The notes: generated by a model from the letters alone, not told the origin. 62,360 nt of DNA from a virus (IMGVR_UViG_3300005607_000002:1-62360), one strand, 5' to 3'. Numbered from the stretch's first letter, positions 1,135-59,574 are shown. Made by a program: numbers and translations.

Positions 1135-1163
1135 TTGCAATCCGCCGCGCGGCGCAATAAAAG
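1135..1163 (+). promoter_or_regulatory. Putative sigma70 promoter for the mini-array
   Basis: TTGCAA-17 bp-TAAAAG just upstream of the first repeat. Confidence 0.55.
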
Positions 1164-1177
1164 GGAATGAGGCGCGC

Positions 1178-1293
1178 CTTTCCGCGGATGCCGGCGCCGG
1201 CGCCGCGGCCTCATTGAAGCGATAGGTGGGGCGTTCCTCTAAAGTAAAGCCTTGTCAATTTCCGCGGCGTCAACGCCGCGGCCTCATTGAAAG
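1178..1293 (+). CRISPR. CRISPR mini-array (repeat-spacer-repeat) with type I-G (I-U)-like repeats
   Basis: Repeat 1 1178-1220 CTTTCCGCGG(N)CGCCGCGGCCTCATTGAAGC with expanded loop; 37-bp spacer 1221-1257; repeat 2 1258-1293 ATTTCCGCGGCGTCAACGCCGCGGCCTCATTGAAAG; palindromic stem and ATTGAAG(C)-type 3' end. Confidence 0.8.
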
Positions 1294-1322
1294 AACCGCC
1301 CTCCGGGGCGGTTCTTTTTTTT
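1292..1322 (+). terminator. Intrinsic terminator
   Basis: AGAACCGCCC-TCCG-GGGCGGTTCT followed by a T run. Confidence 0.85.
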
Positions 1323-13998: not shown

Positions 13999-14126
13999 AA
14001 CTATAATTGACACAATTCCGACAGATCTGCGAAATCCAATTTGCGCCAAATACCCGCCATGATAGAAACAAGCATAGATGCGGTGATCATCGGAACGAGG
14101 CCTCCGAGTAAAAAGCGGGGAGCAGG

Positions 14127-16647: not shown

Positions 16648-16890
16648 ATGGCCGCGGGCTCCGGCGTCATCGATCTCGAAATGGCGCTCCACTGCAAGAC
16701 GCGCGCCGCCGTGCGCGTCTCCGGCGACGGCGATGACAGGCGCGCCGTCTGGCTGCCGGCGTCGCTGATCGAGATCGCAGAAACCGGTCGCCTGATCACA
16801 GGCATCGAAAGCAGCGGGCAGACGGTGAAGCTGCCGCTGGTGACGGTGACGCTGCCGCAATGGCTTGCGGCCGACAAGGGGCTGATATAA
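16648..16890 (+). CDS. Hypothetical phage protein
   Basis: AVWLPASLIE...VTLPQWLAADKGLI pattern common in alphaproteobacterial phages. Confidence 0.65.
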   Translation: MAAGSGVIDLEMALHCKTRAAVRVSGDGDDRRAVWLPASLIEIAETGRLITGIESSGQTVKLPLVTVTLPQWLAADKGLI

Positions 16891-18260
16891 TGGGCCGGCG
16901 CAGCAAGCCGCCGCCGCGCCGCACGGCCGCGAAGATCAGGCGCATGCTGGAGGCCGGCGCCGGCGACGGCAAGATCGCGCGTGCGCTCAACGTGACGCGC
17001 CATGCGGTGCGCAAGATCGCAGCCGAGCGCGCCGCGGAGCTTGCGGCGCAAGCCGCGCGGCGGCGGCCGGATATGACGCTGCCGCTGGACTGCATCCATA
17101 TCGGCGACCGCATCCGCAAGGATTACGGCGACATCGCCTCGCTGGCGCGCTCGATCGACGCCAATGGGCTGCTCCACCCCGTCGTCGTGCGCGTGCGCGG
17201 CCCTCATCCCGACCGCAGCGTTGCGATGGGCGGCGGTTACGAGCTGGTCGCCGGCGAACGGCGGATGCGGGCGTGGCGGCAATCCCGGCGTTGCAACGAG
17301 CCGATTCCGGTGCGCGTCGTCGATCTCGCCTCGATCCGGCGCGGCGAATTTGCCGAGAATCACGAGCGCAAGAATTTCACGCCGTCGGAGCTGGTCGAGA
17401 TCAAGCGCCAGCTTGAAATCGAGTTCGATCTCAAGGGCGCGGCGGCGCAGCGTCGGCGCGCCGGCAAGAAGGCGGCGCCGGGCGAGGCCGGCCGCGCGCT
17501 GGATACGGTGGCCGCCTATGCCGGCCGCAGCGGCCGCACCATCGAGAAGGCCGAGCTGGTCGTTGCGGCGGCCGAGCGCGATCCGGAGCGCTTCGGGCCG
17601 ATCCAGGAGCAGATGGACAGATCCGGCAAGGTGGACGGGCCGGCGCGGCGGGTGCGCAACATGCTGGCGGCGGACGCCATCAAGGCCGAACCGCCGCCGC
17701 TGCCGATGCAGGGGCCTTACCGCACGATCGTCATCGACCCGCCGTGGCCGGCCGATCTTGACGGCGGCCGCGCCGTCGAAGGGCGCGGCTATTACCCTTA
17801 CGCGACGATGACGATCGAGGAGATCGCGGCGCTCGACGTGGCCTCGATCGCGCATCCGGACGGCTGCGCGCTGTGGCTTTGGATCACCAATTTCCACCTT
17901 GTGCGCGGCTGCCAGCTGCCGCTGCTCAAGGCCTGGGGATTTAATGCTTCGACGCTGCTGACCTGGTGCAAGCCTCAATTCGGCCACGGCCAGCGCCTGC
18001 GCGGCGCCACGGAACATGCGATTCTTGCGGTGCGCGGCGAGGTGCCGTGCCTCGCCGGCGAGCAGAGGACCTGGTTCGCCGACGAGCGGGGCAGAAAGCG
18101 CGAGCATTCCGGCAAGCCGGGCGAATTCTTCGATATCGTCCGCGAGGTCACTCCCGCGCCGCGCTATGCCTATCTCTTCGCCGGCCGCACTTTGCCGGCG
18201 GACTGGGACGGCCATGGCGACCGCTTCGGCGCGCCGGCCCAGGCGGAGGCCGCCGAATGA
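16890..18260 (+). CDS. ParB-like N-terminal domain fused to MT-A70-family adenine methyltransferase
   Basis: LARSIDANGLLHPVVV, LVAGERRMRA, ENHERKNFT; then TIVIDPPW, YATMTIEEI, LWLWITN, HSGKP. Confidence 0.88.
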   Translation: MGRRSKPPPRRTAAKIRRMLEAGAGDGKIARALNVTRHAVRKIAAERAAELAAQAARRRPDMTLPLDCIHIGDRIRKDYGDIASLARSIDANGLLHPVVVRVRGPHPDRSVAMGGGYELVAGERRMRAWRQSRRCNEPIPVRVVDLASIRRGEFAENHERKNFTPSELVEIKRQLEIEFDLKGAAAQRRRAGKKAAPGEAGRALDTVAAYAGRSGRTIEKAELVVAAAERDPERFGPIQEQMDRSGKVDGPARRVRNMLAADAIKAEPPPLPMQGPYRTIVIDPPWPADLDGGRAVEGRGYYPYATMTIEEIAALDVASIAHPDGCALWLWITNFHLVRGCQLPLLKAWGFNASTLLTWCKPQFGHGQRLRGATEHAILAVRGEVPCLAGEQRTWFADERGRKREHSGKPGEFFDIVREVTPAPRYAYLFAGRTLPADWDGHGDRFGAPAQAEAAE

Positions 18261-28965: not shown

Positions 28966-29146
28966 TGCTGGCCTATACCGAGCCTGAGATCGAGCTGGCT
29001 CGCGAAATCATGTGCGAGCAACTCGGCGGGACAGAGACCAATCGGCGTTTTGCGAGGCATGCGGCCGGTCTCCATGCCGAACATGTCGATTTCTGCCTGC
29101 AGCTCGCCCGCTGTGTCCTCAGAAGGGCCGGCACGGGATCGCCGTG

Positions 29147-30910
29147 ATGCTGCGGCGCTATACCTTCAAGGTGCATTTCAGCAAGCGCCGCGCCATGCGG
29201 CGCGCGCAGGAGGAAGCCGCGATGCGCTTCGCGCGGATGGCGGCCGAGCTGCGCAATGCTCTGATTGAGCTATGCTACAACACCTACTGCTGCCGCTGCG
29301 AGAGGGCCGGCGCGCCTCCTCCCGTCGACCCTCGTGTGGTTGCCTATGCCGTACGGGACAGGACCAAGGCAGAGGCGCGCGAGATCATCGCCTCCTACCG
29401 GCGCGGCCTCGGCGGCTCGATGCGGCGCAGCGAGCCGCAATGGCACAAGCCCGAGCGCCCATGGCCGCAGGAGCGCAAGGAAAAGCTGCGCGCCACGATG
29501 CGGCGTCGCGAAGAGGAAAAGCGCGCCAGGCGCAAGGCGCCGGCGAAGCCGCGCAAGCCGCCCCGGCAAGCCAGCGTGCGGGCGCTCGCGCTGGCGGAGC
29601 TCACCGGCGAGATCACGGCCTTGCGCTGGGCCTGCCCCGAGTGGGCCGAAATGCCGACCCATATGCAGCATCGGGTCGCCGACGGGCTCGTCAAGTCGCT
29701 CGCCGCCCTCATGCGCGGCGACGCGAAAGCGCCGCGATTCAAGCGGACCGATCGCGCGAACCGGCTCCCGCTCGGCGCCAAAGGCTATAAGCTCGCGCCG
29801 CAGGGCCGCGAGCGGTCGCGCGCCGGCCGGTCCCGCGCGAGCGCTCGAAACTGGAAATTGACCGTCACGGGGCTGCCGGGGCACATGCGCGCCGTCGGCG
29901 AGTTCCCGGCCGAGGTCAGGCAATGGAAGACGGCCGATCTGATTTTCCATGCCGGATCATGGTGGCTATCGGTATGCGTTGAGATTGAGCGCGAGCGCTC
30001 TCACGGCGCAGAAGAGGTTACGGTCAGGCTCGGCCTGATCGACGAGTTTGCCCATGTGGAAGGGGCAACGGGTCCACGCTGGTGCCCGGGCGAGGGCGTT
30101 CGCGCCTGCGCCGAAAGTCCGCATCGTTTCCACGACTTGGCAGGAGGCTCTGACAACGCCGCAGATGCCGTTGCGGATGGGCGGGCCGGATTGGCCGGCA
30201 TTGGCCACATAGGAGCGAGGTCTGACAACGCCGCAGATGCCGTTGCGGATGGGCGGGATCAGGACGGTTGCCGGAATCCTCGGCGACTACCACCTGACAA
30301 CGCCGCAGATGCCGTTGCGGATGGGCGGGATCAGGACGGTTGCCGGAATCCTCGGCGACTACCACCTGACAACGCCGCAGATGCCGTTGCGGATGGGCGG
30401 GTTATCAAACCTTTCTCGATCCCTCAATCAAAACGGCCGGCCGAGCCGGTCGCAGACGCCGCCGCCGACGCCCTCAAGGCCGAGCGCGACCGCCGCTACC
30501 GCCGCGGCTCGCGGCGATGGCGCCGCGCCGCCCGGCGCATCGCCAGGATCGAGGCCCGCGCCGCCCGCAGGCGGCGCGAGCGCCATCATCTGTGGACATC
30601 GCAACTCGTGCGCTGCGCCGGCGCCATAACGGTGATCGCTCCCGACATTCCGCAATTCACGAAATCAGGGCGCGGCGACGCGCGGAACTGGGGCGCCAAC
30701 GTCAAGCTCGCCGCCGCCCTCAACCGTCACATCCTCGGCCAGGCGCCGATGCTCGCCGTATCGATGCTGCAATACAAGGCCGAGGAAGCCGGAATCCGGT
30801 GCGACCTCATCGAAGACGACGCGCCGGAGATCGCCGTCGGCCGCGACCACGTCGCCGCCGGCAAAGCCCAGCGCCGCCTGCGGCGCGCCATCAGAAAGGA
30901 CGCAGCATGA
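29147..30910 (+). CDS. TnpB/Cas12-like RNA-guided DNA-binding protein, predicted nuclease-dead, with internal in-frame CRISPR-like array
   Basis: TnpB-like order: RRYTFKV, LRNAL, ITALR..CPEW, APRFK, WWLSVCVE, degenerate RuvC-I VTVRLGLIDEFA, Arg-rich helix RRGSRRWRRAARRIARIEARAARRRRERHH, degenerate RuvC-II ITVIAPDI, LNRHILGQA...MLQYKAEEAG; no Zn finger or RuvC-III. Confidence 0.8.
   Translation: MLRRYTFKVHFSKRRAMRRAQEEAAMRFARMAAELRNALIELCYNTYCCRCERAGAPPPVDPRVVAYAVRDRTKAEAREIIASYRRGLGGSMRRSEPQWHKPERPWPQERKEKLRATMRRREEEKRARRKAPAKPRKPPRQASVRALALAELTGEITALRWACPEWAEMPTHMQHRVADGLVKSLAALMRGDAKAPRFKRTDRANRLPLGAKGYKLAPQGRERSRAGRSRASARNWKLTVTGLPGHMRAVGEFPAEVRQWKTADLIFHAGSWWLSVCVEIERERSHGAEEVTVRLGLIDEFAHVEGATGPRWCPGEGVRACAESPHRFHDLAGGSDNAADAVADGRAGLAGIGHIGARSDNAADAVADGRDQDGCRNPRRLPPDNAADAVADGRDQDGCRNPRRLPPDNAADAVADGRVIKPFSIPQSKRPAEPVADAAADALKAERDRRYRRGSRRWRRAARRIARIEARAARRRRERHHLWTSQLVRCAGAITVIAPDIPQFTKSGRGDARNWGANVKLAAALNRHILGQAPMLAVSMLQYKAEEAGIRCDLIEDDAPEIAVGRDHVAAGKAQRRLRRAIRKDAA
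30150..30401. CRISPR. Intragenic CRISPR-like array: 4 x 36-bp repeat, 3 x 36-bp spacers
   Basis: CTGACAACGCCGCAGATGCCGTTGCGGATGGGCGGG at 30150, 30222, 30294, 30366; hairpin CCGCA/TGCGG; spacers 2 and 3 identical; possible degenerate fifth repeat at 30441-30476. Confidence 0.85.
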
Positions 30911-49823: not shown

Positions 49824-52235
49824 GTGCCCGGCTATGCGCTCAACATCGATCCGCTGCCGTCGGTCAGTCCGATCGGCGCCCCGGGCGGCGATTTCGAACG
49901 CATCCAGGCGTCGCCGGAGATGTTCGGCGGCGCGATCGCGCGCGCGCTCGGCCAGCTCGGCCAGGGCGCGGAAGCCGTTGGTAATGCCGGTTTCGATGTG
50001 CTGCGGCAGCGCCAGGAGCGGACCAACGAGATCGGCACTTCCGAGACTAATACCTGGCTCGCCAAGGCGTTCACCGACAGGCTCAACGATTTTCAGCGGC
50101 TGCAGGGGCGCGCCGCGCAGGACGCGCTGCCGAAATACAAGCAGGACATCGAAGACCTCTACCAGCAATCGCTCAAGAGCGCGGGCGACAATCTCGCCAT
50201 GAAGGCGATGCTGGCGAGATCCGGCCGCTATCTGACCGACGCCTATTACCGCTACGGCGCCCAGCATGCCGCTTCGCAGTGGCGGCAATGGCAGGACAAG
50301 ACCGCCGCCGACCGCGCGGCGGAATACGGCAATCAGGCGGCGATCGCCGCGGAGCACGGGACCTGGGACGACGTGGCGGCGTTCCTCCACACGTCCGACG
50401 ACGAAACATCGAAGCGCTTCGAAGCGCAGGGCTGGCAGACCCAGGATATCGCCCCCGAGATCGCCAGGAACCGGGGCCGCAATGTGCGCAATATCGTCGA
50501 AACGCTCGCGGCCCAGGGCGATTTTCGCACTGCCCGGGCGGTCTACGACAGATATCAGGACGGCATGGACGCGGCGTCGCGGCTTGCCGTCGTCTCCAGG
50601 CTGCGCACCGCCAATGCGCAGATCGAAGGCCATCGCATCGCCGATGAGGAGACGGGCCGGGCGCTGCGCGCGGACGCGGCGGAATTTCTCAAGGAGCGCA
50701 CGAAGGCCCGGGTCGAGGGGCTCAATCCGGATTTTGCCGGACGGCTTGCCGAGGCAGGGCGGGACTTCGAGGCGCAGACCGGCGGCAAGGCCGCGTTCGA
50801 GAGCCTCAAGCGCACCACCGAAGAGCAGGCCGAGATCTACGAGCGGCATCTTGCGATGCCCGGCGGCGTCGCGGCCCATCCCGCCGCGCCTCCGGGCCGC
50901 TCGCGCCACGAACGCGGCGAGGCGGCGGACATCCCCGCCGGCCCGTTCCGCGACTGGCTGCACGAGAACGCCGGCCGCTACGGCCTTGAATTTCTCAAGG
51001 GCGAGACCGGCCGCAATGATCCCGGCCATGTGCAGCTCGCGGCCGGGCCGCCCGGCCCGCACGAGGGCGACAAGGGCGCGGTCTTTGACCGCATCGTCGA
51101 GAGGACGAAGGACAATCCGCTGGCGCAGAGCTACGCCGTCGCCCGGATGAACCAGATTTTTGCGGTTGCGCGCGATGAACGCGTGCAGGGCCTTGCGCTG
51201 TTCAACCGCCGCCAGCAGGATACGACGATCGAGGCGCTGGCGACGGGAACGGTGCGCGAGCCGTTGACCGAGGACGATTTCCTCACCCACCGCAAGCCCG
51301 GCGAAAGCGCCGATGATGCGCTTGACCGCTATCAGAGCTATCTCGCCGATCTCCGCAACGGCGCCGACCGCCATGCGATGGACGGCATGTCGGCCGCCGA
51401 TATGCGCGCCATGATCGCCGCGGCCGAACCGCGGCCCGACGTTCCGGGCGGCATGACCCGCGCGGTGGAGCGTCAGGCGTTTCTCATCAAGGCGATGGAG
51501 GAGATCGAAAAGAAGCGCCGCGACGATCCGGCCGGCGCGGTTGCAAAATCGCCGGCTGTGATGATGGCCCTGCAGCAATACGACCCGCAGAAGCCAGAGA
51601 CCTTCCGTTCGGTGGCCGATGCGCGGCTTGCCGCCCAGGCCGAACTCGGCATTCCGCCGGAGGAGCGCTCCGCGATCGCCAAGGACGAGGCGCTCGAGAT
51701 GATCGCCCCGGTGTGGCGGGCGCTGCCCGGACAGCAGCGTGACGCCGTGACTGCGGCGGCTGCGCGCTTCGAGGCGATGTTCGGCCCGGCATGGCCGCAG
51801 GCCTTTGCCTATGCGCTGCGCACCCACGCCGCCGATGCGGCGGTCAAGGAGAGGGCGGCCGCGGTGATCGGCAAATGGCTCAAGGGACAGCCGGCGTCCG
51901 CCGCCGAGGCCCGCGTCGCCGACCAGGAGAACGAGATCGCGGCCGCCGATATGGCGGTGCGCGCGATGACCCCTGAGCAGATCCGCGAGACCGCCGAAGC
52001 GGTAAGGATGGGCGCCGGCCCGTTCGTGCCGGCCGATTTTGCGCAGCCGCCGGCGACGCCGGAAAAAAGCGCCGCAAAAAGCGGGGAAGCAAGGCCCGTG
52101 CCTCCCGCGGCCGATATCATTGCGCTGCGGCGCAACCCCGCGCTCGGGGCTCGCTTCGACGAGAAATACGGCAAGGGCGCGGCCAAGCAGATTCTTGAGC
52201 GCTATCCGCTCGGAGCAGGCGATGGCGGACGATGA
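49824..52235 (+). CDS. Internal virion protein with M15-type peptidoglycan peptidase domain
   Basis: SLKRTTEEQAEIY, AAPPGRSRHERGEAADI, WLHENAGRYGL, DPGHVQ. Confidence 0.75.
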   Translation: MPGYALNIDPLPSVSPIGAPGGDFERIQASPEMFGGAIARALGQLGQGAEAVGNAGFDVLRQRQERTNEIGTSETNTWLAKAFTDRLNDFQRLQGRAAQDALPKYKQDIEDLYQQSLKSAGDNLAMKAMLARSGRYLTDAYYRYGAQHAASQWRQWQDKTAADRAAEYGNQAAIAAEHGTWDDVAAFLHTSDDETSKRFEAQGWQTQDIAPEIARNRGRNVRNIVETLAAQGDFRTARAVYDRYQDGMDAASRLAVVSRLRTANAQIEGHRIADEETGRALRADAAEFLKERTKARVEGLNPDFAGRLAEAGRDFEAQTGGKAAFESLKRTTEEQAEIYERHLAMPGGVAAHPAAPPGRSRHERGEAADIPAGPFRDWLHENAGRYGLEFLKGETGRNDPGHVQLAAGPPGPHEGDKGAVFDRIVERTKDNPLAQSYAVARMNQIFAVARDERVQGLALFNRRQQDTTIEALATGTVREPLTEDDFLTHRKPGESADDALDRYQSYLADLRNGADRHAMDGMSAADMRAMIAAAEPRPDVPGGMTRAVERQAFLIKAMEEIEKKRRDDPAGAVAKSPAVMMALQQYDPQKPETFRSVADARLAAQAELGIPPEERSAIAKDEALEMIAPVWRALPGQQRDAVTAAAARFEAMFGPAWPQAFAYALRTHAADAAVKERAAAVIGKWLKGQPASAAEARVADQENEIAAADMAVRAMTPEQIRETAEAVRMGAGPFVPADFAQPPATPEKSAAKSGEARPVPPAADIIALRRNPALGARFDEKYGKGAAKQILERYPLGAGDGGR

Positions 52236-55200
52236 CGTGCTGACCGCCGATCCGGCGGTGCAGGCCGGGGAAGCCCGCGAGGCCGCAGCCGCGCGGCTCG
52301 CCCGGCCGCTCGGCCTCGGGCATGGCCTCGTCCCCGGCCCCGGCCCCGAACCGCCGGAGGAAGATTATTCCGTCCTGCCGTCCGACCGCGAGGAGACGCA
52401 GGCAGGCGATGTCGATATCGGCGAGCGCTTCAGGCTGGGACGGATCAACTCGTATTATCGCGGCACCATCGCCGGCAGCGGACGCCTCGCCGAGCTGGCG
52501 CGCGTTGCGACCGCGCCGGAAGACCGGCTGACCGATGCCGAACGCAAGCTTCGTCCGGCGTGGAAAAAGGAATATGACGGCATCGTCGCCGACCTCGCCC
52601 GCTATGACCTGATGCAGCCGTGGGGCACGACGCTGGAGGGCGCGGCGGCGCTCGGCGGCGCGCTCGCGGGCGGCATGATGAGCCCCGAGAGCTTCCTTGG
52701 CGCTCCGGCGCGCGGCGCGACCTGGCTTGCCCGCACCGTCACCGCCGCCGTCCAGCAGGGCGGCATCCAGGCTGCGGCCGATCCCGTTGTGCAATGGCTC
52801 AGCCGCGAGGGCGGGACGGAGCAGGAGTACGATCCCTGGCGCACCGCCGAGACGGCGGGCCTGGGCGCCGTCATCGGCGGCGGCCTGCACGGCATTCTGG
52901 GCGAGCTTGTGCCGGCGGCGCGGGTGCGCAAATTGCGCGCGGATCTTGCGGCGGAGGACGAGGCCTTCGCCGGCGACGTCGAACGGCAGGCGGCGGCAGG
53001 ACCGGAGATTCCGCAGCAATTGCCGAGCGACATTGCGGAGGCGCAGGCGGCCGGGACCGCTCCTGCAGCGCCGCAGGCCGCGACGCAAGCGCCTGGGCAA
53101 GCGCCTGGGCAAGCGCCTGCGCCGCCGCAGCCGTCCACGCCCGCGCCTGGGCAAGCGCCCGCGCCGGCCGCTCCGGAAGACGCCTCGGCCTGGACCAAGA
53201 CAGGCGGCCAGAAAGGCTCCAATCCGGGCGGGACCTACAAGGACGCGCGGGGCATCGAATGGTATGTCAAGACGCCGCAGACCGAAGACCATGCCCGCAA
53301 CGAGATGCTGGCGAATGAGCTTTACCGCTATGCCGGCGCCAACGTGCCGGAGATGAAGCTCGTCACTCTTGACGGTAAGCCGGCGGTGGCGAGCCGTATG
53401 CTGCCGAGCGGAATGCAGCAGCTTGCAAAGTTTCCCTCGTCCGGCGCCCACGCGAAATTCGCAATCGACGCTATCAAGAGAGACTTTGCAGCCGATGCCT
53501 GGCTCGCCAATCACGATGTGATCGGCCTCGGCCGCGACAACATTCTCGTCAGCCCAATAGATCCGGACCAAGTCGTGCGCATCGACCAGGGCGGCGCGCT
53601 GCGCTACCGCGCGCAAGGCCAGCCTAAGCAGAATTTCGGGCCGAAGGTCGCCGAGTTCGAGACCATGCGCGATCCCAACATCGCGCCGCAGGCGGCGCAG
53701 ATATTCGGCCCGATGTCGGACCAGGAGCTGCTCTACTCGATCAACCGCGTGCTGCTTGTTCCCGAGCAGGACATCCGCGACGCGGTGGCGAAGTTCGGCC
53801 CCGCCGACCCGGCCGAAGCGCAGAAGCTCGCCGATACGCTGATCGCGCGGCAGGACGACCTGCGCGAGATCCGCAAAGATCTGATGGCGAAGATCGCAGC
53901 GAAGATGCAGTCCGCCGCGGCGGCGGCGCCTGCGGGAGCGCCCCCGGCAACCGCGCCTGCGCCTCCTCCTGCATCTGCGCCTTCGCCCGCTCCCGCGCCT
54001 GCGCCTGCGCCTCCTCCTGCATCTGCGCCTGCTCCCGCGCCTGCGCCGCAACAAAAGGCCACGGACGTCAGCGTCGTCTGGGGCAAGAGCGGCGGCGGAA
54101 AGCCGATCAGCCAGTCCAATCCGGGCGCGCCGCTTGCTCCGCTCGCACATGTTTCCGGCGGCGCGCCCGTCGCCGCCGACGCCGCGCACCTTCCCTCCGG
54201 GGCGCCGCTCAAGAGCGCTTCATGGGCCAAGAAGCCTCCGGCGAACTGGAACAATGCCGGCGGCAAGGACGCCGCGCTCGCCAAGACCGAGCCGGCGCTC
54301 AAGACGCCGCTCGGCAAGAAGCCGGCGTCCGGCGTCATCATCCGCGAGCCGGACGGACGCGTGTGGGTTGTCGCCCCCGCCAACCAGTTCGGCGGCTACG
54401 AGCATACGTTCCCGAAAGGAAAAATCAGCCCCGGCCTTTCTCCGCAGGCGAACGCCATCAAAGAGGCGTTCCAGGAGACCGGCCTCAAGGTCAAGATCAC
54501 CGGCCTCATCGGCGACTTCGAAGGCGACACCAGCATTACACGCTATTATTGGGCCGAGCGCACCGGCGGCAGCCCGGAAGACGCACATTGGGAGACCGAG
54601 GCGGTCAAGCTCGTGCCGGCCGCGCGGCTGTTCGACTATCTCAACATGCCGCGCGACCAGGAGCTCGCCAAGGCCGCGTTCGGCAATGCGCTCAAGCCCG
54701 GCAAGCACGGCGATCCTGCGGCGATCGCCGCTTCCGCCGCAACCGGCGCAGCCGCAGGCGCGAGCGCATCATCTGCAACCGCGGCCGGCCTGCCTGCAGA
54801 CGCCGAAAAATCCGCCAAGGATTGGATCAAAACCAACATGGCGAACGTGCATACGGCCGCGGAGGTAGACGCGATGCCCGCGGACCAGGCGGTCGCCTAC
54901 GCGGAGCACCACGGGTGGAAACCCGCCGGTGCGCCGAGGAAGGGGATTCCTACCGCTCCGGGCAGCCATCCTGCACTGCCGATGGACCAGGCCTCGCGCG
55001 AGGCCCGCGCCAAGCAGACAGGCTTCAAGCTGCCGGGAATGCCGGAGCCGTGGGCGCGGACCTGGTTTCACGGGACGCCGAATATTTTTGAGGCCTTCGA
55101 CCTCGGCCATGTCGGCAGCTTCCATTCGACCAGCAAAGAAAAGGCAGTTTTTCTTTCCGACAGTCCAAAGATCGCCGGGATGTTCGGCGGCGGGGGCCCG

Positions 55201-58200
55201 GTCTTTCCGATGTGGACGCGAGCGCAGAAAGTCATGGTGATCGACCCCGAGCCCGGAGAGGCCTATCGCAGTTTCACCAGCTCATTCTTCGGCGCGAAGA
55301 TCCAGGAGGCCATCAAACACGGCTACGACGCCGTGCTGTTCCGGCAGATATCCGATGTGGGCGGCGTCGGCGATCAACTGGCGGTGCTGCACCCGAACCT
55401 CCTGCGCTCGATCCACGCCGCATTTGATCCGGCCGAGATTATCAGCCCCAAGCTTGCCGCGATCAAGCCCGGAAAGAAGGAGCTGACGCCGGATGAGTTC
55501 GACCGCGCCTATCGGGAGATGCTCGAGCAGGCGGCGAGCGACATGGTTGAGGCGCAGGAACGCGGGGAGGCCGTCCATCCGGGCAGGGAAGCGCCCGCTG
55601 CCGGCGCCGCCGAAGGCGCGGCGGAAGGCGAAGGCCATCTGCAGGCCATCGCTCAGCGCAAGGCCGGGCAGACGCTCGCCGGCGAAGTGAAGCGGCCCGC
55701 GACCGGCGTCGCGGCGCCGGCGGCGACCGCGGTCACGACGCCCGCGCCCGGCGCGCCCGGCGGCGCAGCAGCGTCATCGCTTCCGGGCGTCTCCGCCGCG
55801 CTCACGCCCGCCGCGCAGCAAGCGAAGGACGCCGCAATCCGCTCGCTCCAGCAGCAGGTGACGGACCTTGCGAAAGCGATGGGCCTGACCGTGCACGAAG
55901 GCCGCGTGCAGATCAAAGGCGCGCTGGGCCAGTTCAACTCGCAAAGCGATGTCATCCGCATCAAGGAGATTCCCGATCTCGTGGCCGTGGCCCACGAAGC
56001 GGGACACGCCATCGAGCAGAAGGTCGGGCAGGACCTTACCAACGCAATAAACTCTTTTGCCTACGAGCTGGGGCCGCTCGACTACGAATGGCCGGCCCAG
56101 GCGCGGCCGGCGGAAGGCTTTGCCGAATTCATCCGCCACATGATCGGCAACCCGGCCTATGCGCAGGCGCAGGCGCCCGGCTTCATGACGGCATTTCGCA
56201 CCCTGATGCAGCAGCGCGCGCCCGATCTGCTCAAGGCGATCGACAGCGCCGCCGCGGCCTACCGGGCCTACACGGAAGCGTCATCGGCCGGCGCGATTCA
56301 ATCGATGATCCGCAGCCAGGCCGAAAAGCAGCAAGGCTGGCGCAGCATTGTCCAGGGCCTCCGCGAGGACGGCCTTGCCGCGACGGTCAATGTCGTGATG
56401 TCGCGCGCCTATGATATGACGCTCGACAAGAATTCCGACATGTTCCGCATGGTGCGCGACGTCGCCCGCGCGGTTCGCGACGAGACCGGACAGCTTGTCG
56501 ACCTCAAGGCCGCCGACAACCCCGCCATTCTTCTCCAGATGGCGCCCGACGCCGCGCGGGCCCGCGCCATCGCCGACACCAACCGCGGCACCATCCCTTA
56601 TCACGGCGTCGCGCCGCGCGGGCCGTCGCTGACCGACGCGCTCGCCAAGGCGATCGGCGCGCCCACCCGGTTCGGCCAATGGAACGAGGACAAGCGCACC
56701 TTGTTTTCGGTCTACCTCATTGCCCGCCGCGGCGAATATCTGTGGCGCCGCTTCGAAGCCGGCGAATTGCCCAATCCGCCGGTCGCCTTCAATAAGGCCG
56801 ACGCCATCCAGGCGATGGCGGACCTCGAAGCCGCCAATCCGACCTTCCGCGCCGCCTCCGACATGGTGCATGCGTGGGCGAAGGAGCAGCTCATCAAGAT
56901 GCGCGACGCCGGGCTCAAGGAGCCCGATGTCATCGACCGCCTGCTGCGTCAGGAATTCTATGTGCCGTTCATGCGCGACATGTCGGACAAGCCGATGGCC
57001 GGCGGCCCCGTCACCATGGGCGCAATGCATGAAGGGCCAGGCGTGACCGAGCTTATCAAGCGCATCAAAGGCTCGGCGCGCGACATCTTTGATCCGATCG
57101 AATCGCTGATCGGGCAGGCGCGCCTTCTCAACCGCGCCGTCGTCTATAACGACATCTATCTCGCGCTCGAACGGCTGAGCGAATTGCCGGGCGCCCGCGC
57201 CGGCCGGTTCTTCGAGCCGGTCCCGGCCTACGAGCCGCACAGGACGACGTTTAACCTCGGCGACGTCATCGAGAAGAAGCTGATCGCCAGCGGCGTGCTG
57301 CCGGATGACGCGGCCGTCGCGACCGCCGGCATCGTCAATCTGTTCGGCGAAGACCCGCTGATGGGCGCGTTCTTCCGCATGGAGAAAACCGCGCCGCACG
57401 GCGAGCCGATCGTCTTCTACCGCAAGGAGGGAAAGCTCAAGGCGGCGCGCGTCATGGCGGCGGCGGACAGCGGCGAAGGCTACAGGCTGTTCGAATTGCT
57501 GACCGCGATGCCGCAGACGATGGGCGATTTGTTTTCCGATCTGGTCGGCGCGGTCAGCCACGTCCAGCGCGCCGGCATCGTCACCAACCCGACCTTCATC
57601 CTGACCAATTACATCCGCGACCAGCTCGCTACTTTCCTGCTGCGGCCCGGCTATTTCCCGATCTTGTCGGGCCTCAAGGGCATTCTCTCGGAGGCGCGAC
57701 AGGGCGAAGCCGCGCGGCTCTATGCGCTCGGCGGCGGCGTGTCGCCCGGCGCCGCCGTCGCGCCGCTGGAGCATATGCTCCGCAACGACGTCGCGGCGCT
57801 GGCGCAGAACGGCTACCTCGTCAGCCGCCTCGGCCCGACCGGGCATCTGCTCACCACGACGCCGTCATGGGAAGAGTTCGGCAAAGGAACGCCGCAGGAC
57901 TTTTCGCGCAATGTCGCGGAAGCATTCCGCGGCTGGCTCGAATTCTCGCAGATCACCGAGGCCGGGACGCGCAATTCGGTGTTCGGCATCGTCTATAAGC
58001 AGAAGCTCGCCCAAGGGCTGTCGCCTTATGAGGCAATGGAAGAAGCCGCCTGGCAGGCCCGCGACCTGCTCGATTTCGGGCGTCACGGCTCGCATATGCT
58101 GATGGCGCAGCGCTTCATCCCGTTCCTCAATGCGCATCTGCAGGGGCTCGACAAGGCTTATCGGACCATTGCGCAGCCGATCATCGACAGGATCCGCGGC

Positions 58201-59574
58201 GACCAGGTGTTCGCCTCTGACCCGGAGAATTTCCGCAATGCGCTGATGTCGCTTGTCAAGGTGGTGGGCGTCGGCGCCGTGCTGGGCGCGGCCTGGGCGG
58301 CGCTCAACCGCGACAACGAAGCCTATCGCGACGCCAGCCCCTATCTGAAAGGGACGCATGTCATTGTCGGGATCGGCAGGAATATGCTGCTGATTCCCAA
58401 GCCGTTCGAATTAGGACTGGGCTTTACCGCCGGCGAATATGCCTACCAGCAGTTCGCGCAGGATGACCCGCGCGCCGCCGCCATGTTCGCTTCCGCGGCA
58501 TGGCAGATCCTTGAGCCGCCGACCGACGTGCCGCTGTTCCGCACCGGCTTCGAGCTCGCGGCCAACAAGAATCTCTGGTCGGGCCGCGATATCGTGCCGG
58601 AAAGCCTGCAGCGTCTGGAGCCGGCGCAGCAATACAGCGAGCGCACCAGCGCGATGGCGAAGATGATCGGCGCGGCGATCGGCGTCTCGCCCATCAAGGT
58701 CGATTACGCGATCGGCGGCTTCTTCGGCAACTGGGGCCGCGACTTCATGGCGCTCAGCCAGTCGGTCGATCCGGATTCGCCCACTGCGGCCGTGGAGGAC
58801 CGCGTGTTCCTGCGGCGCTTCATCAAGGACCCGACGCGCACCTCCGACATCACCACCCGGTTCTGGGACTACATGCGCCGGACCACCGGCGTCTACAATC
58901 GGGACGTTGCGACCTACGACAATTTCGTCAAACTGCATCGCGACCGGGATGCGGCGGATTTTTTAGCCCGCAAGCCGGGCCGCGAGCGCGCCTATATGAT
59001 CCTGCAATCGGCGGCGCGCGACGAGGACGGCAACCCTGCCTTCGGCGCCGATGAAAAACGGCTGCATCCGCTGACGCGCGCCTATGAGGCGGTGAGCCTG
59101 CTCAACGACATGAGCCGCGACCTGGCGGCCAACAATTTAAGCCGCTGGGAAAACCGCGAGCCGCTCAGGCTGACGCCCGACGGCCGCCGCGACCTGCTCG
59201 ACAGCATACGCGAGCTTAAGCAGATGGAGATGCGCAACGCCTTCGTCATCATGAAGGAGCCGGGCTATGCCGGCCGCGCGCTGTTCGACGTCAATCCCGT
59301 GCTGGCGAAGATTGCCGCCGTCGCCCCTTCGGTCGCCGATGAGATCGCCACACGCTATGCGACGCGGCGCATCTACACGACGCAGGCCGTGGCCGCCGCC
59401 TATCCGCACATGGAGCGGGCGCTGCTGCGCGAAGGCTCGGAGGCCGACCTGGAAGGACTGGCCCTCGACGCCAAGGCCGAGGGCTGGGAGTTCGGCGCAG
59501 AGCGGGTGAAACGCCCGCAGAAGCTGCGGACGGTTATTCCGGGGCAGCCCGCCGCGCAACCGATTGCGCCATAA
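52222..59574 (+). CDS. Giant polyvalent ejection protein (kinase-like, NUDIX, ART-like, zincin-like, LPD38-like domains)
   Basis: GGAG RBS; GSNPGG..WYVK..DAWLANHDVIG..DN..RIDQGG; FPKG..AIKEAFQETG; WFHGT..VFLSD..GYDAV; HEAGH; IPKPFELG..SPIKVDY. Confidence 0.8.
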   Translation: MADDDVLTADPAVQAGEAREAAAARLARPLGLGHGLVPGPGPEPPEEDYSVLPSDREETQAGDVDIGERFRLGRINSYYRGTIAGSGRLAELARVATAPEDRLTDAERKLRPAWKKEYDGIVADLARYDLMQPWGTTLEGAAALGGALAGGMMSPESFLGAPARGATWLARTVTAAVQQGGIQAAADPVVQWLSREGGTEQEYDPWRTAETAGLGAVIGGGLHGILGELVPAARVRKLRADLAAEDEAFAGDVERQAAAGPEIPQQLPSDIAEAQAAGTAPAAPQAATQAPGQAPGQAPAPPQPSTPAPGQAPAPAAPEDASAWTKTGGQKGSNPGGTYKDARGIEWYVKTPQTEDHARNEMLANELYRYAGANVPEMKLVTLDGKPAVASRMLPSGMQQLAKFPSSGAHAKFAIDAIKRDFAADAWLANHDVIGLGRDNILVSPIDPDQVVRIDQGGALRYRAQGQPKQNFGPKVAEFETMRDPNIAPQAAQIFGPMSDQELLYSINRVLLVPEQDIRDAVAKFGPADPAEAQKLADTLIARQDDLREIRKDLMAKIAAKMQSAAAAAPAGAPPATAPAPPPASAPSPAPAPAPAPPPASAPAPAPAPQQKATDVSVVWGKSGGGKPISQSNPGAPLAPLAHVSGGAPVAADAAHLPSGAPLKSASWAKKPPANWNNAGGKDAALAKTEPALKTPLGKKPASGVIIREPDGRVWVVAPANQFGGYEHTFPKGKISPGLSPQANAIKEAFQETGLKVKITGLIGDFEGDTSITRYYWAERTGGSPEDAHWETEAVKLVPAARLFDYLNMPRDQELAKAAFGNALKPGKHGDPAAIAASAATGAAAGASASSATAAGLPADAEKSAKDWIKTNMANVHTAAEVDAMPADQAVAYAEHHGWKPAGAPRKGIPTAPGSHPALPMDQASREARAKQTGFKLPGMPEPWARTWFHGTPNIFEAFDLGHVGSFHSTSKEKAVFLSDSPKIAGMFGGGGPVFPMWTRAQKVMVIDPEPGEAYRSFTSSFFGAKIQEAIKHGYDAVLFRQISDVGGVGDQLAVLHPNLLRSIHAAFDPAEIISPKLAAIKPGKKELTPDEFDRAYREMLEQAASDMVEAQERGEAVHPGREAPAAGAAEGAAEGEGHLQAIAQRKAGQTLAGEVKRPATGVAAPAATAVTTPAPGAPGGAAASSLPGVSAALTPAAQQAKDAAIRSLQQQVTDLAKAMGLTVHEGRVQIKGALGQFNSQSDVIRIKEIPDLVAVAHEAGHAIEQKVGQDLTNAINSFAYELGPLDYEWPAQARPAEGFAEFIRHMIGNPAYAQAQAPGFMTAFRTLMQQRAPDLLKAIDSAAAAYRAYTEASSAGAIQSMIRSQAEKQQGWRSIVQGLREDGLAATVNVVMSRAYDMTLDKNSDMFRMVRDVARAVRDETGQLVDLKAADNPAILLQMAPDAARARAIADTNRGTIPYHGVAPRGPSLTDALAKAIGAPTRFGQWNEDKRTLFSVYLIARRGEYLWRRFEAGELPNPPVAFNKADAIQAMADLEAANPTFRAASDMVHAWAKEQLIKMRDAGLKEPDVIDRLLRQEFYVPFMRDMSDKPMAGGPVTMGAMHEGPGVTELIKRIKGSARDIFDPIESLIGQARLLNRAVVYNDIYLALERLSELPGARAGRFFEPVPAYEPHRTTFNLGDVIEKKLIASGVLPDDAAVATAGIVNLFGEDPLMGAFFRMEKTAPHGEPIVFYRKEGKLKAARVMAAADSGEGYRLFELLTAMPQTMGDLFSDLVGAVSHVQRAGIVTNPTFILTNYIRDQLATFLLRPGYFPILSGLKGILSEARQGEAARLYALGGGVSPGAAVAPLEHMLRNDVAALAQNGYLVSRLGPTGHLLTTTPSWEEFGKGTPQDFSRNVAEAFRGWLEFSQITEAGTRNSVFGIVYKQKLAQGLSPYEAMEEAAWQARDLLDFGRHGSHMLMAQRFIPFLNAHLQGLDKAYRTIAQPIIDRIRGDQVFASDPENFRNALMSLVKVVGVGAVLGAAWAALNRDNEAYRDASPYLKGTHVIVGIGRNMLLIPKPFELGLGFTAGEYAYQQFAQDDPRAAAMFASAAWQILEPPTDVPLFRTGFELAANKNLWSGRDIVPESLQRLEPAQQYSERTSAMAKMIGAAIGVSPIKVDYAIGGFFGNWGRDFMALSQSVDPDSPTAAVEDRVFLRRFIKDPTRTSDITTRFWDYMRRTTGVYNRDVATYDNFVKLHRDRDAADFLARKPGRERAYMILQSAARDEDGNPAFGADEKRLHPLTRAYEAVSLLNDMSRDLAANNLSRWENREPLRLTPDGRRDLLDSIRELKQMEMRNAFVIMKEPGYAGRALFDVNPVLAKIAAVAPSVADEIATRYATRRIYTTQAVAAAYPHMERALLREGSEADLEGLALDAKAEGWEFGAERVKRPQKLRTVIPGQPAAQPIAP

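Follow-up and report, generated by a model that had tools for sequence, protein, structure and literature searches.

The locus and its neighbouring genes

The window, meaning the whole stretch of DNA that was analysed, is a complete virus record of 62,360 bp with terminal repeats. The phage is podovirus-like, encoding a portal, a tail protein, and a primase, and lies far from isolated phages: it has no megablast match, and its portal shares ~33% identity with those of isolated phages of many hosts. The stretch that carries the unit described here occurs in soil and mine metagenomes of several studies, some of which may have been the source of the record.

Two small genes on the plus strand precede the unit. 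The first (600–797) encodes an Arc-like DNA-binding protein of the ribbon-helix-helix type, 65 aa long. It matches Pfam Arc (PF03869) with an E-value of 5.4e-6 and 26.6 bits, the cut-off being 20.4, and falls among the Arc/CopG-like repressors in PHROGs. It is a candidate regulator, possibly Aca-like. Its start codon is spanned by an inverted repeat at 577–637, with 23-nt arms (577–599 and 615–637) that are 87% complementary, and this repeat is a candidate operator of a small operon that would end with the unit. The second gene (794–1087) begins with an ATG overlapping the upstream stop codon (ATGA) and encodes an orphan protein of 97 aa with a mildly acidic pI of 5.6. The G+C content here is lower than that of the surroundings, at 0.45–0.52 between 900 and 1100. 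The orphan belongs to no Pfam or PHROG family and has only two partial homologs among 5.8 billion proteins, and the flanking ORF at 410–1087 has no viral relatives. Its AF2 model is a plain three-helix fold of moderate confidence (pLDDT 71.5). It is a candidate accessory or anti-defence gene.

Anatomy of the unit

Reading of the sequence, together with a terminator call, places a repeat, a 37-nt spacer, a second repeat, and a strong terminator at 1178–1322 on the plus strand, as the preliminary description had reported. The first repeat, R1 (1178–1220), is 43 nt long and consists of CTTTCCGCGG, a loop region 7 nt longer than that of the second repeat, and CCGCGG-CCTC-ATTGAAGC. Its stem base pairs CCGCGG at 1182–1187 with CCGCGG at 1203–1208 and is extended by a bulged 5-bp helix. 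The linker CCTC (1209–1212) and the canonical 8-nt handle ATTGAAGC (1213–1220) follow. The spacer, or guide, occupies 1221–1257. The second repeat, R2 (1258–1293), has the canonical 36 nt and reads ATTTCCGCGGCG-TCAA-CGCCGCGG-CCTC-ATTGAAAG, with an 8-bp stem (1262–1269 with 1274–1281), the loop TCAA, and the linker CCTC at 1282–1285. Its 3' end is ATTGAAAG, as against ATTGAAGC in the family consensus.

The two repeats have CTTTCCGCGG/ATTTCCGCGG and the 18-nt CGCCGCGGCCTCATTGAA in common and differ in the length of the loop region (15 nt in R1, 8 nt in R2) and in their final bases (AGC in R1, AAG in R2). A repeat search pairs them over 27 nt at 89% identity with a spacing of 73, and their overall identity is estimated by reading at ~70%. 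The 16-mer CCGCGGCCTCATTGAA has exactly two copies in the 62-kb genome and none in a reversed-pattern control. When up to three mismatches are allowed, GCGGCCTCATTGAAGC finds R1 and R2 as good matches, plus three matches with three mismatches each, for a chance expectation of 1.6. The only other array-like tandem repeat in the genome is a perfect 72-nt duplication of 2.5 copies at 30222–30401. Its sequence is unrelated to the unit, in agreement with the earlier statement that the two arrays are distinct.

The spacer ends in CTTGTCA, also as described before, and the other strand reads TTGACA at this point. Its G+C content is 49%, while that of the surrounding phage region is ~65%.

The claim that the unit has its own promoter and terminator held for the terminator and only weakly for the promoter. 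The intrinsic terminator (1289–1322) has a 13-bp stem at 1289–1318 with seven G-C pairs, a 4-nt loop, and a run of eight T, and it overlaps the last 5 nt of R2. The candidate promoter is a weak motif at 1134–1163, made up of CTTGCA/TTGCAA (1134–1140), 17 nt, and TAAAAG (1158–1163), which would put the transcription start ~8–10 nt before R1. A sigma-70 consensus scan of 500–2200 returned no site and did not call this motif.

The minimum-energy fold of 1168–1322 includes both repeat hairpins and the terminator, with a z-score of -4.1, and none of 200 shuffled sequences folds as well. The predicted fold also allows pairing between the 5' leader and the first bases of the spacer. Such pairing, or the overlap of terminator and R2, could hinder processing or use of the seed. 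No Rfam family matches the window at gathering level; CRISPR-DR16 (gathering score 35) gives sub-threshold scores of 26.0 bits at R2 (E 3.7e-4) and 23.2 bits at R1. Other sub-threshold Rfam matches at the unit (RNAI, rnk leader etc.) were set aside, being produced by the terminator hairpin. Two short ORFs, at 1226–1378 on the plus strand and 1038–1214 on the minus strand, overlap the unit.

The repeat family and its assignment to type I-G

Relatives of the repeat were sought in contigs of one genome per species as two copies of GCGGCCTCATTGAA lying 45–72 nt apart. This pattern covers the 14 nt that precede the two terminal bases of the repeat and so fixes consensus positions 21–34. At least 120 loci, bacterial or archaeal, carry the family as true arrays; a single locus has up to 54 matches, and the periods are 71–75. 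Their hosts span many phyla, for example Acidobacteriota, Pseudomonadota, Planctomycetota, and Myxococcota, and include two archaeal MAGs. The 36-nt family consensus, drawn from 94 distinct array repeats, is (G/A/C)TTTCCGCGG-loop-CCGCGGCCTCATTGAAGC, and its 3' part is CCGCGG-CCTC-ATTGAAGC. The final GC lies outside the search pattern and is conserved nonetheless, with G in 99% and C in 95% of these 94 repeats.

Genes beside the arrays identify the system. In four loci, six of the ten flanking ORFs match Cas3g (with its extension domain), Csb2, Cas2, or Cas4g/Cas1g above cut-offs. These come from loci L026, L041, and L055; both ORFs of L085 and two others have no match. Cas3g was also found above its cut-off in four of the five array-bearing genomes searched, the exception being G003. 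As the arrays adjoin Cas3g, Csb2, and Cas4g/Cas1g where examined, the family is of type I-G. Judged by its sequence, the repeat of the unit is a member of this widespread type I-G CRISPR repeat family. The preliminary description had called the repeat type I-G-like and had made its reading depend on a counterpart in genuine CRISPR arrays; since the repeat is linked to genuine repeats of the I-G kind, the reading survives that test.

The available passages of the work on type I-G of Thioalkalivibrio sulfidiphilus (bioRxiv 10.1101/2022.08.08.503147 = PMC9638904) describe a 36-nt repeat with a 7–8-bp hairpin. Csb2 cuts 4 nt 3' of this hairpin to give an 8-nt 5' handle and a crRNA of ~72 nt, and it remains on the 3' hairpin of the crRNA; the PAM is TTN (bioRxiv 10.1101/2022.08.08.503147). 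Compared by geometry alone, that system and the phage unit share the order of stem, 4-nt linker, and 8-nt handle, but the former is a complete host system with an array whereas the phage carries one guide only. The general I-G pattern of ~36 nt with a G+C-rich hairpin of 7–8 bp, 4 nt, and an 8-nt handle is seen in R2; R1 shows it in its stem base, CCTC, and ATTGAAGC.

From the published Csb2 rule, the mature crRNA is predicted to extend over 1213–1285 on the plus strand, 73 nt in all, made up of the 8-nt handle, the 37-nt guide, and a 28-nt 3' hairpin part. R1 conserves its stem base, linker, and exact handle, and R2 a perfect hairpin. The deviations are in the loop of R1 and the final 3 nt of R2 and would fall outside this predicted RNA. 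Among the native spacers of the family, taken from at least 120 loci, 2640 of 2865 (92%) are 35–39 nt long, with 671 of exactly 37 nt and a mode of 36–37 nt; the 37-nt spacer of the phage is hence a full-length guide.

Relatives and spacer turnover

A close relative comes from a moss metagenome, X12, in which a 1335-nt contig aligns to 1172–2200 with 78 substitutions and 10 gaps, a difference of ~8.6% (~92% identity). Among the differences listed, at least 14 of the 37 spacer positions are substituted and 7 more are missing, and the relative's spacer may be ~30 nt long. By the same listing the terminator region has two changes in ~70 nt, and R2 has three: T>C at 1259 gives ACTTCC, a variant of native repeats, C>T at 1268 retains a G-U pair, and T>C at 1270 affects the loop. 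In the relative the handle of R1 reads ATTGAAAC; other contigs overlap 1172–1218, so the R1 hairpin lies outside the comparison. As the spacer differs far more than its non-coding surroundings, it looks to have been replaced rather than to have drifted. Another contig of X12 aligns to the region of the Arc-like gene (600–806, 13 differences) and then diverges from the window. Together, these two separate contigs suggest that the orphan gene has also been replaced in the relative.

More distant relatives cover less of the locus. The tail-fibre gene led to a single viral relative, L167 (55% aa identity), which lacks an I-G unit at the corresponding position. L171 and L172, related through the portal, are fragments and end short of the locus.

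The absence of the unit from L167 would suit a non-functional relic, that is, a piece of a host array gained by recombination and now decaying, as would the departure of the R1 loop and the R2 end from the family consensus and the failure to find a target (see below). Against this, the deviations leave untouched exactly those positions that a mature crRNA requires, and the unit has its own tight terminator. Furthermore, a relative of ~92% identity in another habitat retains the unit but with a different spacer, the same stretch appears in runs of several studies, and similar stand-alone units recur in unrelated viral contigs. A relic is therefore considered very unlikely.

The free divergence of the spacer in the X12 relative bears on another possibility, that the repeats serve as a decoy in the manner of RNA anti-CRISPRs (Racrs), tying up Csb2 and Cas7g in useless complexes with the intervening sequence as mere filler. 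Solitary repeat units of phages work in this way (PMC10651486, in the part available), and a Racr resembles the phage unit in being a small phage-encoded RNA, set apart in the genome, that imitates a CRISPR repeat. The ~70% identity of R1 and R2 lies below the rule of at least 90% that the same paper quotes for the two copies of a mini-array, and the unit would thus be filed there as a solitary repeat. The lack of a detected target is also as a decoy would have it. Unlike a Racr, which is a lone repeat, the unit has a second copy 73 nt away and a spacer of native length; these and the intact 8-nt handle of R1 would all be unneeded in a decoy. The contrast of at least 21 of 37 positions changed in the spacer with two in the terminator region points to replacement and not to drift, and spacers are 35–39 nt long, as in native arrays, in 24 of the 26 other viral I-G units. 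On this evidence a decoy is distinctly unlikely.

Candidate hosts

Several lines of evidence bear on the host. Among the array consensus repeats listed, the closest to the unit differ at 5–6 of 36 positions and belong to L029 (a gammaproteobacterial MAG, 5/36), L038 (Nevskia), L040 (Rhodovulum sp. PH10), L112, and L145. The 33-nt core of R2 has no exact match in the JGI metagenome contigs scanned and none at up to three mismatches in 401 genomes of one order. Comparison of the 2865 host spacers, from at least 120 array loci, with the phage gave no match; the best reach 24–27 of 35–39 positions, and the best partial matches 20 nt.

In run X1, from a likely source sample, a contig of 1400x depth matches ~32 nt of R2 with one base missing, at a phage depth of 124x. 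The repeat of L100 and L080, MAGs of Rhodocyclaceae and Burkholderiales, differs from this R2 variant by two mismatches. This contig may be the collapsed array repeat of the host, and is taken as a lead only. In the alphaproteobacterial class of G007, 28 of 401 genomes have portal homologs (best identity 39%), and in the gammaproteobacterial class of G006 3 of 400 genomes do (best identity 31%). These counts give a weak hint of an alphaproteobacterial host, which conflicts with the repeat lead towards Rhodocyclaceae/Burkholderiales-type repeats.

Predicted function

The phage genome has no match to the Csb2, Cas3g, Cas7g, or Cas4g/Cas1g families. The earlier statement that it lacks type I cas genes is thus borne out for the I-G families, which were those tested. 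A virus free of these genes, with one native-length spacer between two repeats, has the makings of a mini-array; as regards identity with host repeats, the closest of the listed array consensuses stands at the 5/36 mismatches of L029. The proposal of a stand-alone unit usable by a host I-G system is consistent with this gene content and with the anatomy. The preferred reading, which we give about an even chance, is that the unit is a functional virus-borne type I-G mini-CRISPR array that borrows the host Cascade, its function being predicted from sequence. In every reading except that of a relic the RNA would engage host I-G Cas proteins, and such engagement is very probable.

Starting from the observed anatomy, repeat family, link to I-G cas genes, and different spacer of the relative, we infer how the unit would be transcribed, processed, and loaded, and what it would target. 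A transcript of ~150 nt would start at the weak promoter or arise by read-through from the operon of the Arc-like and orphan genes, and would end at the terminator. Host Csb2, a Cas5-Cas6 fusion, would bind both repeat hairpins and cut 4 nt 3' of each stem. The crRNA released in this way would carry AUUGAAGC at its 5' end, followed by the full-length guide and the R2 hairpin. Csb2 would stay on the hairpin while host Cas7g, Cas8g, and Cas3g assemble on the RNA. The phage would thereby load the host Cascade with a guide of its own choosing, and such an RNA would also vie with the crRNAs of the host for Cas proteins. As a guide of native, interference-competent length that has no counterpart in the genome of the phage itself, it would most likely be used against a rival mobile element, probably a competing phage or plasmid.

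Spacer targets

Searches for the target covered phages, plasmids, metagenomes, and host loci. The spacer has no match with up to three mismatches in its own genome. A search against phages, which the preliminary description had proposed, gave no blastn match in 50,697 phage records, and plasmids returned only 21-nt chance matches (E = 5). The exact 37-mer is absent from both IMG/VR and the JGI metagenome contigs. In stretches of the related viral contigs L167, L171, and L172 the best matches reach 19–21 of 37 positions, and the whole L167 record has none with up to three mismatches. In these searches the spacer thus matches no other virus or mobile element, the large collections having been scanned for exact matches only, so that diverged targets would be missed.

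The preliminary description also suggested that the spacer could address a promoter such as that of a cas operon. In the corresponding reading, the RNA would be a regulatory guide like the viral crRNA-like anti-CRISPR RNAs (Cracrs), processed and loaded, with a spacer that matches a host promoter only partially, by PAM and seed. The promoter might be that of the I-G cas operon, of a CRISPR-guarded toxin, or of another defence, and Cascade would bind there without cutting and silence immunity. Viral RNAs of the same layout have been reported, often near acr genes (bioRxiv 10.1101/2024.10.29.618823, in the passages available). The unit lies directly 3' of the Arc-like regulator and a fast-changing orphan, with the X12 match ending at ~806, just past the regulator gene. 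The low G+C content of the spacer and the TTGACA on its other strand would also suit a promoter target, and a partial match would fit the absence of a full protospacer. In addition, at least one host I-G locus, L169, has a CreR-like unit just upstream of cas3g.

The searches gave no support for this proposal. A TTN-flanked match to at least 9 of 10 seed positions was not found in 1.26 Mb of loci, including 123 array loci of I-G and three cas loci of 19 kb each, although the host's own locus may lie outside this set. No match with up to three mismatches exists in five I-G-bearing genomes, and the spacer shares its start with none of the 2865 host spacers from at least 120 loci. The available passages on Cracrs give spacers of ~19–21 nt for type I (bioRxiv 10.1101/2024.10.29.618823), whereas the phage spacer has the full length of 37 nt. 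The different spacer of the close X12 relative is also less expected if one host promoter must be matched, and the CreR-like unit of L169 itself has no nearby target. Silencing of a host promoter, whether that of the cas operon, a guarded toxin, or another defence, is accordingly regarded as unlikely. The L169 unit consists of a handle-only pseudo-repeat, 37 nt, and a near-complete repeat.

Comparison with known viral CRISPR RNAs

As a virus-borne mini-array or crRNA-like viral RNA, the unit is of a kind already known. The portogloboviruses SPV1 and SPV2 carry mini-CRISPR arrays that are used in interviral conflicts (PMC6858448; review PMC11656645; both as far as their available text goes). 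Like the phage studied here, they are viruses without matching cas genes, they carry one or two spacers between host-type repeats, and they are thought to borrow the host effector. The phage unit differs in being of subtype I-G and in its carrier, a podovirus-like bacterial soil phage. Its repeats also differ, being identical neither to each other nor to those of any array found. According to the available part of the review, most spacers of virus-borne mini-arrays target related viruses (PMC11656645), whereas no related-virus target was detected for the phage unit.

The unit also resembles Cracrs in layout. Both consist of a viral pseudo-repeat, spacer, pseudo-repeat, and terminator with degenerate outer repeat parts, and a Cracr often neighbours acr genes (bioRxiv 10.1101/2024.10.29.618823, available passages). 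The same source reports Cracrs for V-A, I-F, I-E, I-C, and I-B only, with short spacers that match the cas or creT promoter over at least nine PAM-proximal bases. In contrast, the phage unit has a 37-nt spacer for which no promoter match was found.

The term 'I-G' does not occur in the main text of the Cracr report (bioRxiv 10.1101/2024.10.29.618823), and both 'I-G' and 'I-U' have zero occurrences in the main text of PMC10651486, supplements aside. The main texts on viral mini-arrays, Racrs, and Cracrs, in the portions available, thus never mention I-G, and supplements may list cases. The unit would then represent a known viral trick in a CRISPR subtype for which no published case was found in these sources.

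This is of interest as, among type I systems, I-G has been studied least. The unit would extend the hijack-or-jam arms race to another subtype and ties an uncultured phage of soil or mines to hosts that bear I-G. A compact, self-terminated I-G guide gene is also a ready test substrate for the processing rules of Csb2.

Split-repeat units in other viral contigs

A search of IMG/VR for the pattern of handle, 34–46 nt, and repeat start returned 27 loci, almost all with 35–39-nt spacers, indicating that guide-like I-G units recur in viral contigs. Counting that of the window, there are 27 distinct units, of which 22 have neither a full R1 nor a full R2. The 22 have a split-repeat layout in which X is followed by GCGG-CCTC-ATTGAAGC, the guide, NTTTCCGC, and X'. 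Their guides are 35–39 nt long in all but one, the exception being L009 with 50 nt. The flanks vary between units yet remain complementary: the pairing of X with X' lengthens the 4-bp GCGG/CCGC core by at least five pairs in 19 of the 22 units and by at least six in 17, while only 3.3% of 702 mismatched-partner controls reach six pairs. As this complementarity flanks the guide, the Csb2 hairpin appears to be formed across it. A single Csb2 cut would then release the handle, with a 3' hairpin of two pieces left behind, and the genome would contain no direct repeat.

No mention of such a layout was found in the passages on hairpins, stems, and processing of bioRxiv 10.1101/2024.10.29.618823, or under partial or half repeats in the available text of the review PMC11656645. 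If processed, split-repeat units would be a new minimal way of encoding a class 1 guide. Avoidance of long direct repeats may be the theme that they have in common with the varying loops of R1 and R2.

A broader proposal is put forward tentatively, as possible but short of an even chance. Phages of I-G hosts would have a repertoire of stand-alone guide genes that has not been described so far, with the window's unit as the canonical form and the split-repeat unit as the one most often seen in viral contigs. The difference in loop between R1 and R2, the swapped spacer, and the variable orphan behind a conserved Arc-like regulator would then mark an exchangeable cassette for counter-defence or competition, possibly the first I-G pair of a Cracr and an Acr.

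Targets were also sought for some of the other viral units. The split-unit guides of L017 and L153 match only their own contigs in IMG/VR. The guide of L156 seemed to fall on a conserved cas4g/cas1g site, with 15–17 nt in common with five of six aligned loci (L122 being in another register). This match is not seed-anchored and was therefore rejected as probably due to chance.

Several contigs carry two or three split units, for example L017, L153, and L161/L164. By reading, motifs resembling CTTGAC-N17-TAnnnT lie just before many of the viral I-G units, in the same position as the motif at 1134–1163 of the window.

Split-repeat I-G units in viral contigs

Several viral contigs carry type I-G units in which the guide lies between two halves of a repeat and not between full repeats. 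In these split-repeat units a 3′ repeat half (GCGG-CCTC-ATTGAAGC) precedes a 35–39-nt guide, which is followed by a 5′ repeat half (NTTTCCGC). The outer flanks are mutually complementary and covary, adding at least five pairs in 19 of the 22 units and at least six in 17 of the 22, versus 3.3% of mismatched-partner controls for the latter threshold. Promoter-like motifs lie upstream of many units, and several contigs hold two or three. Examples occur in L017 (6845–6907, 7792–7853 and 11222–11282), L153 (1265–1325 and 6165–6224), L161 (3534–3593 and 164–224) and L018 (2837–2897), with further units in L146, L152, L154, L158, L162, L163 and other loci.

The IMG/VR contig that holds L161 also contains a viral mini-array (L156, 6852–6905), with short 30-nt repeats with 4-bp stems and a 30-nt spacer. 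In five I-G loci, a conserved cas4g/cas1g site has 15–17 contiguous bases in common with this spacer. This match lacks a PAM-proximal anchor and was rejected as probably fortuitous.

A related element in a host and a possible host repeat

A CreR-like unit was found in the host I-G locus L169 of a Rhodospirillales MAG (14020–14098, minus strand), between cas3g and cas4g/cas1g and on the same strand as cas3g. It consists of a handle-only pseudo-repeat (GACCTCATTGAAGT), 37 nt, and a degenerate, near-complete repeat. A search within 6 kb revealed no PAM-flanked target of the unit.

In metagenome run X1, a contig of 1400x depth matches the second mini-array repeat of the phage (about 1259–1291) minus one base (1274), versus a phage depth of 124x there. 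This variant differs by two mismatches from the repeat of array loci L100 and L080. The contig possibly represents the host's array repeat in collapsed form, X1 being a likely source sample.

Genomic setting and relatives of the phage

Immediately 5′ of the mini-array is a small operon (577–1087). An Arc-like RHH gene (600–797) has an inverted repeat over its start and is translationally coupled through an ATGA overlap to a near-orphan gene of 97 aa and lower G+C (794–1087). In the relative from moss run X12, the RHH region is ~94% conserved and the contig diverges past ~806. The layout resembles that of a conserved regulator paired with a variable anti-defence gene.

Close relatives of the phage exist, as the portals of two IMG/VR fragments, L171 and L172, are 95% and 82% identical to its own. 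L172 shares a metagenome id with L009, itself a carrier of a split I-G unit.

Within an ORF (29012–30910) that has a transposase PHROG match in its C-terminal part, a 72-nt sequence is perfectly duplicated in tandem (30222–30401, 2.5 copies). The duplication probably corresponds to the intragenic array of the preliminary description and has no relation to the I-G repeat. Elsewhere, the sole PHROG match of a 2511-aa ORF (52039–59574) is weak and of unknown function, and 16860–18260 encodes a ParB-like/DNA methyltransferase fusion.
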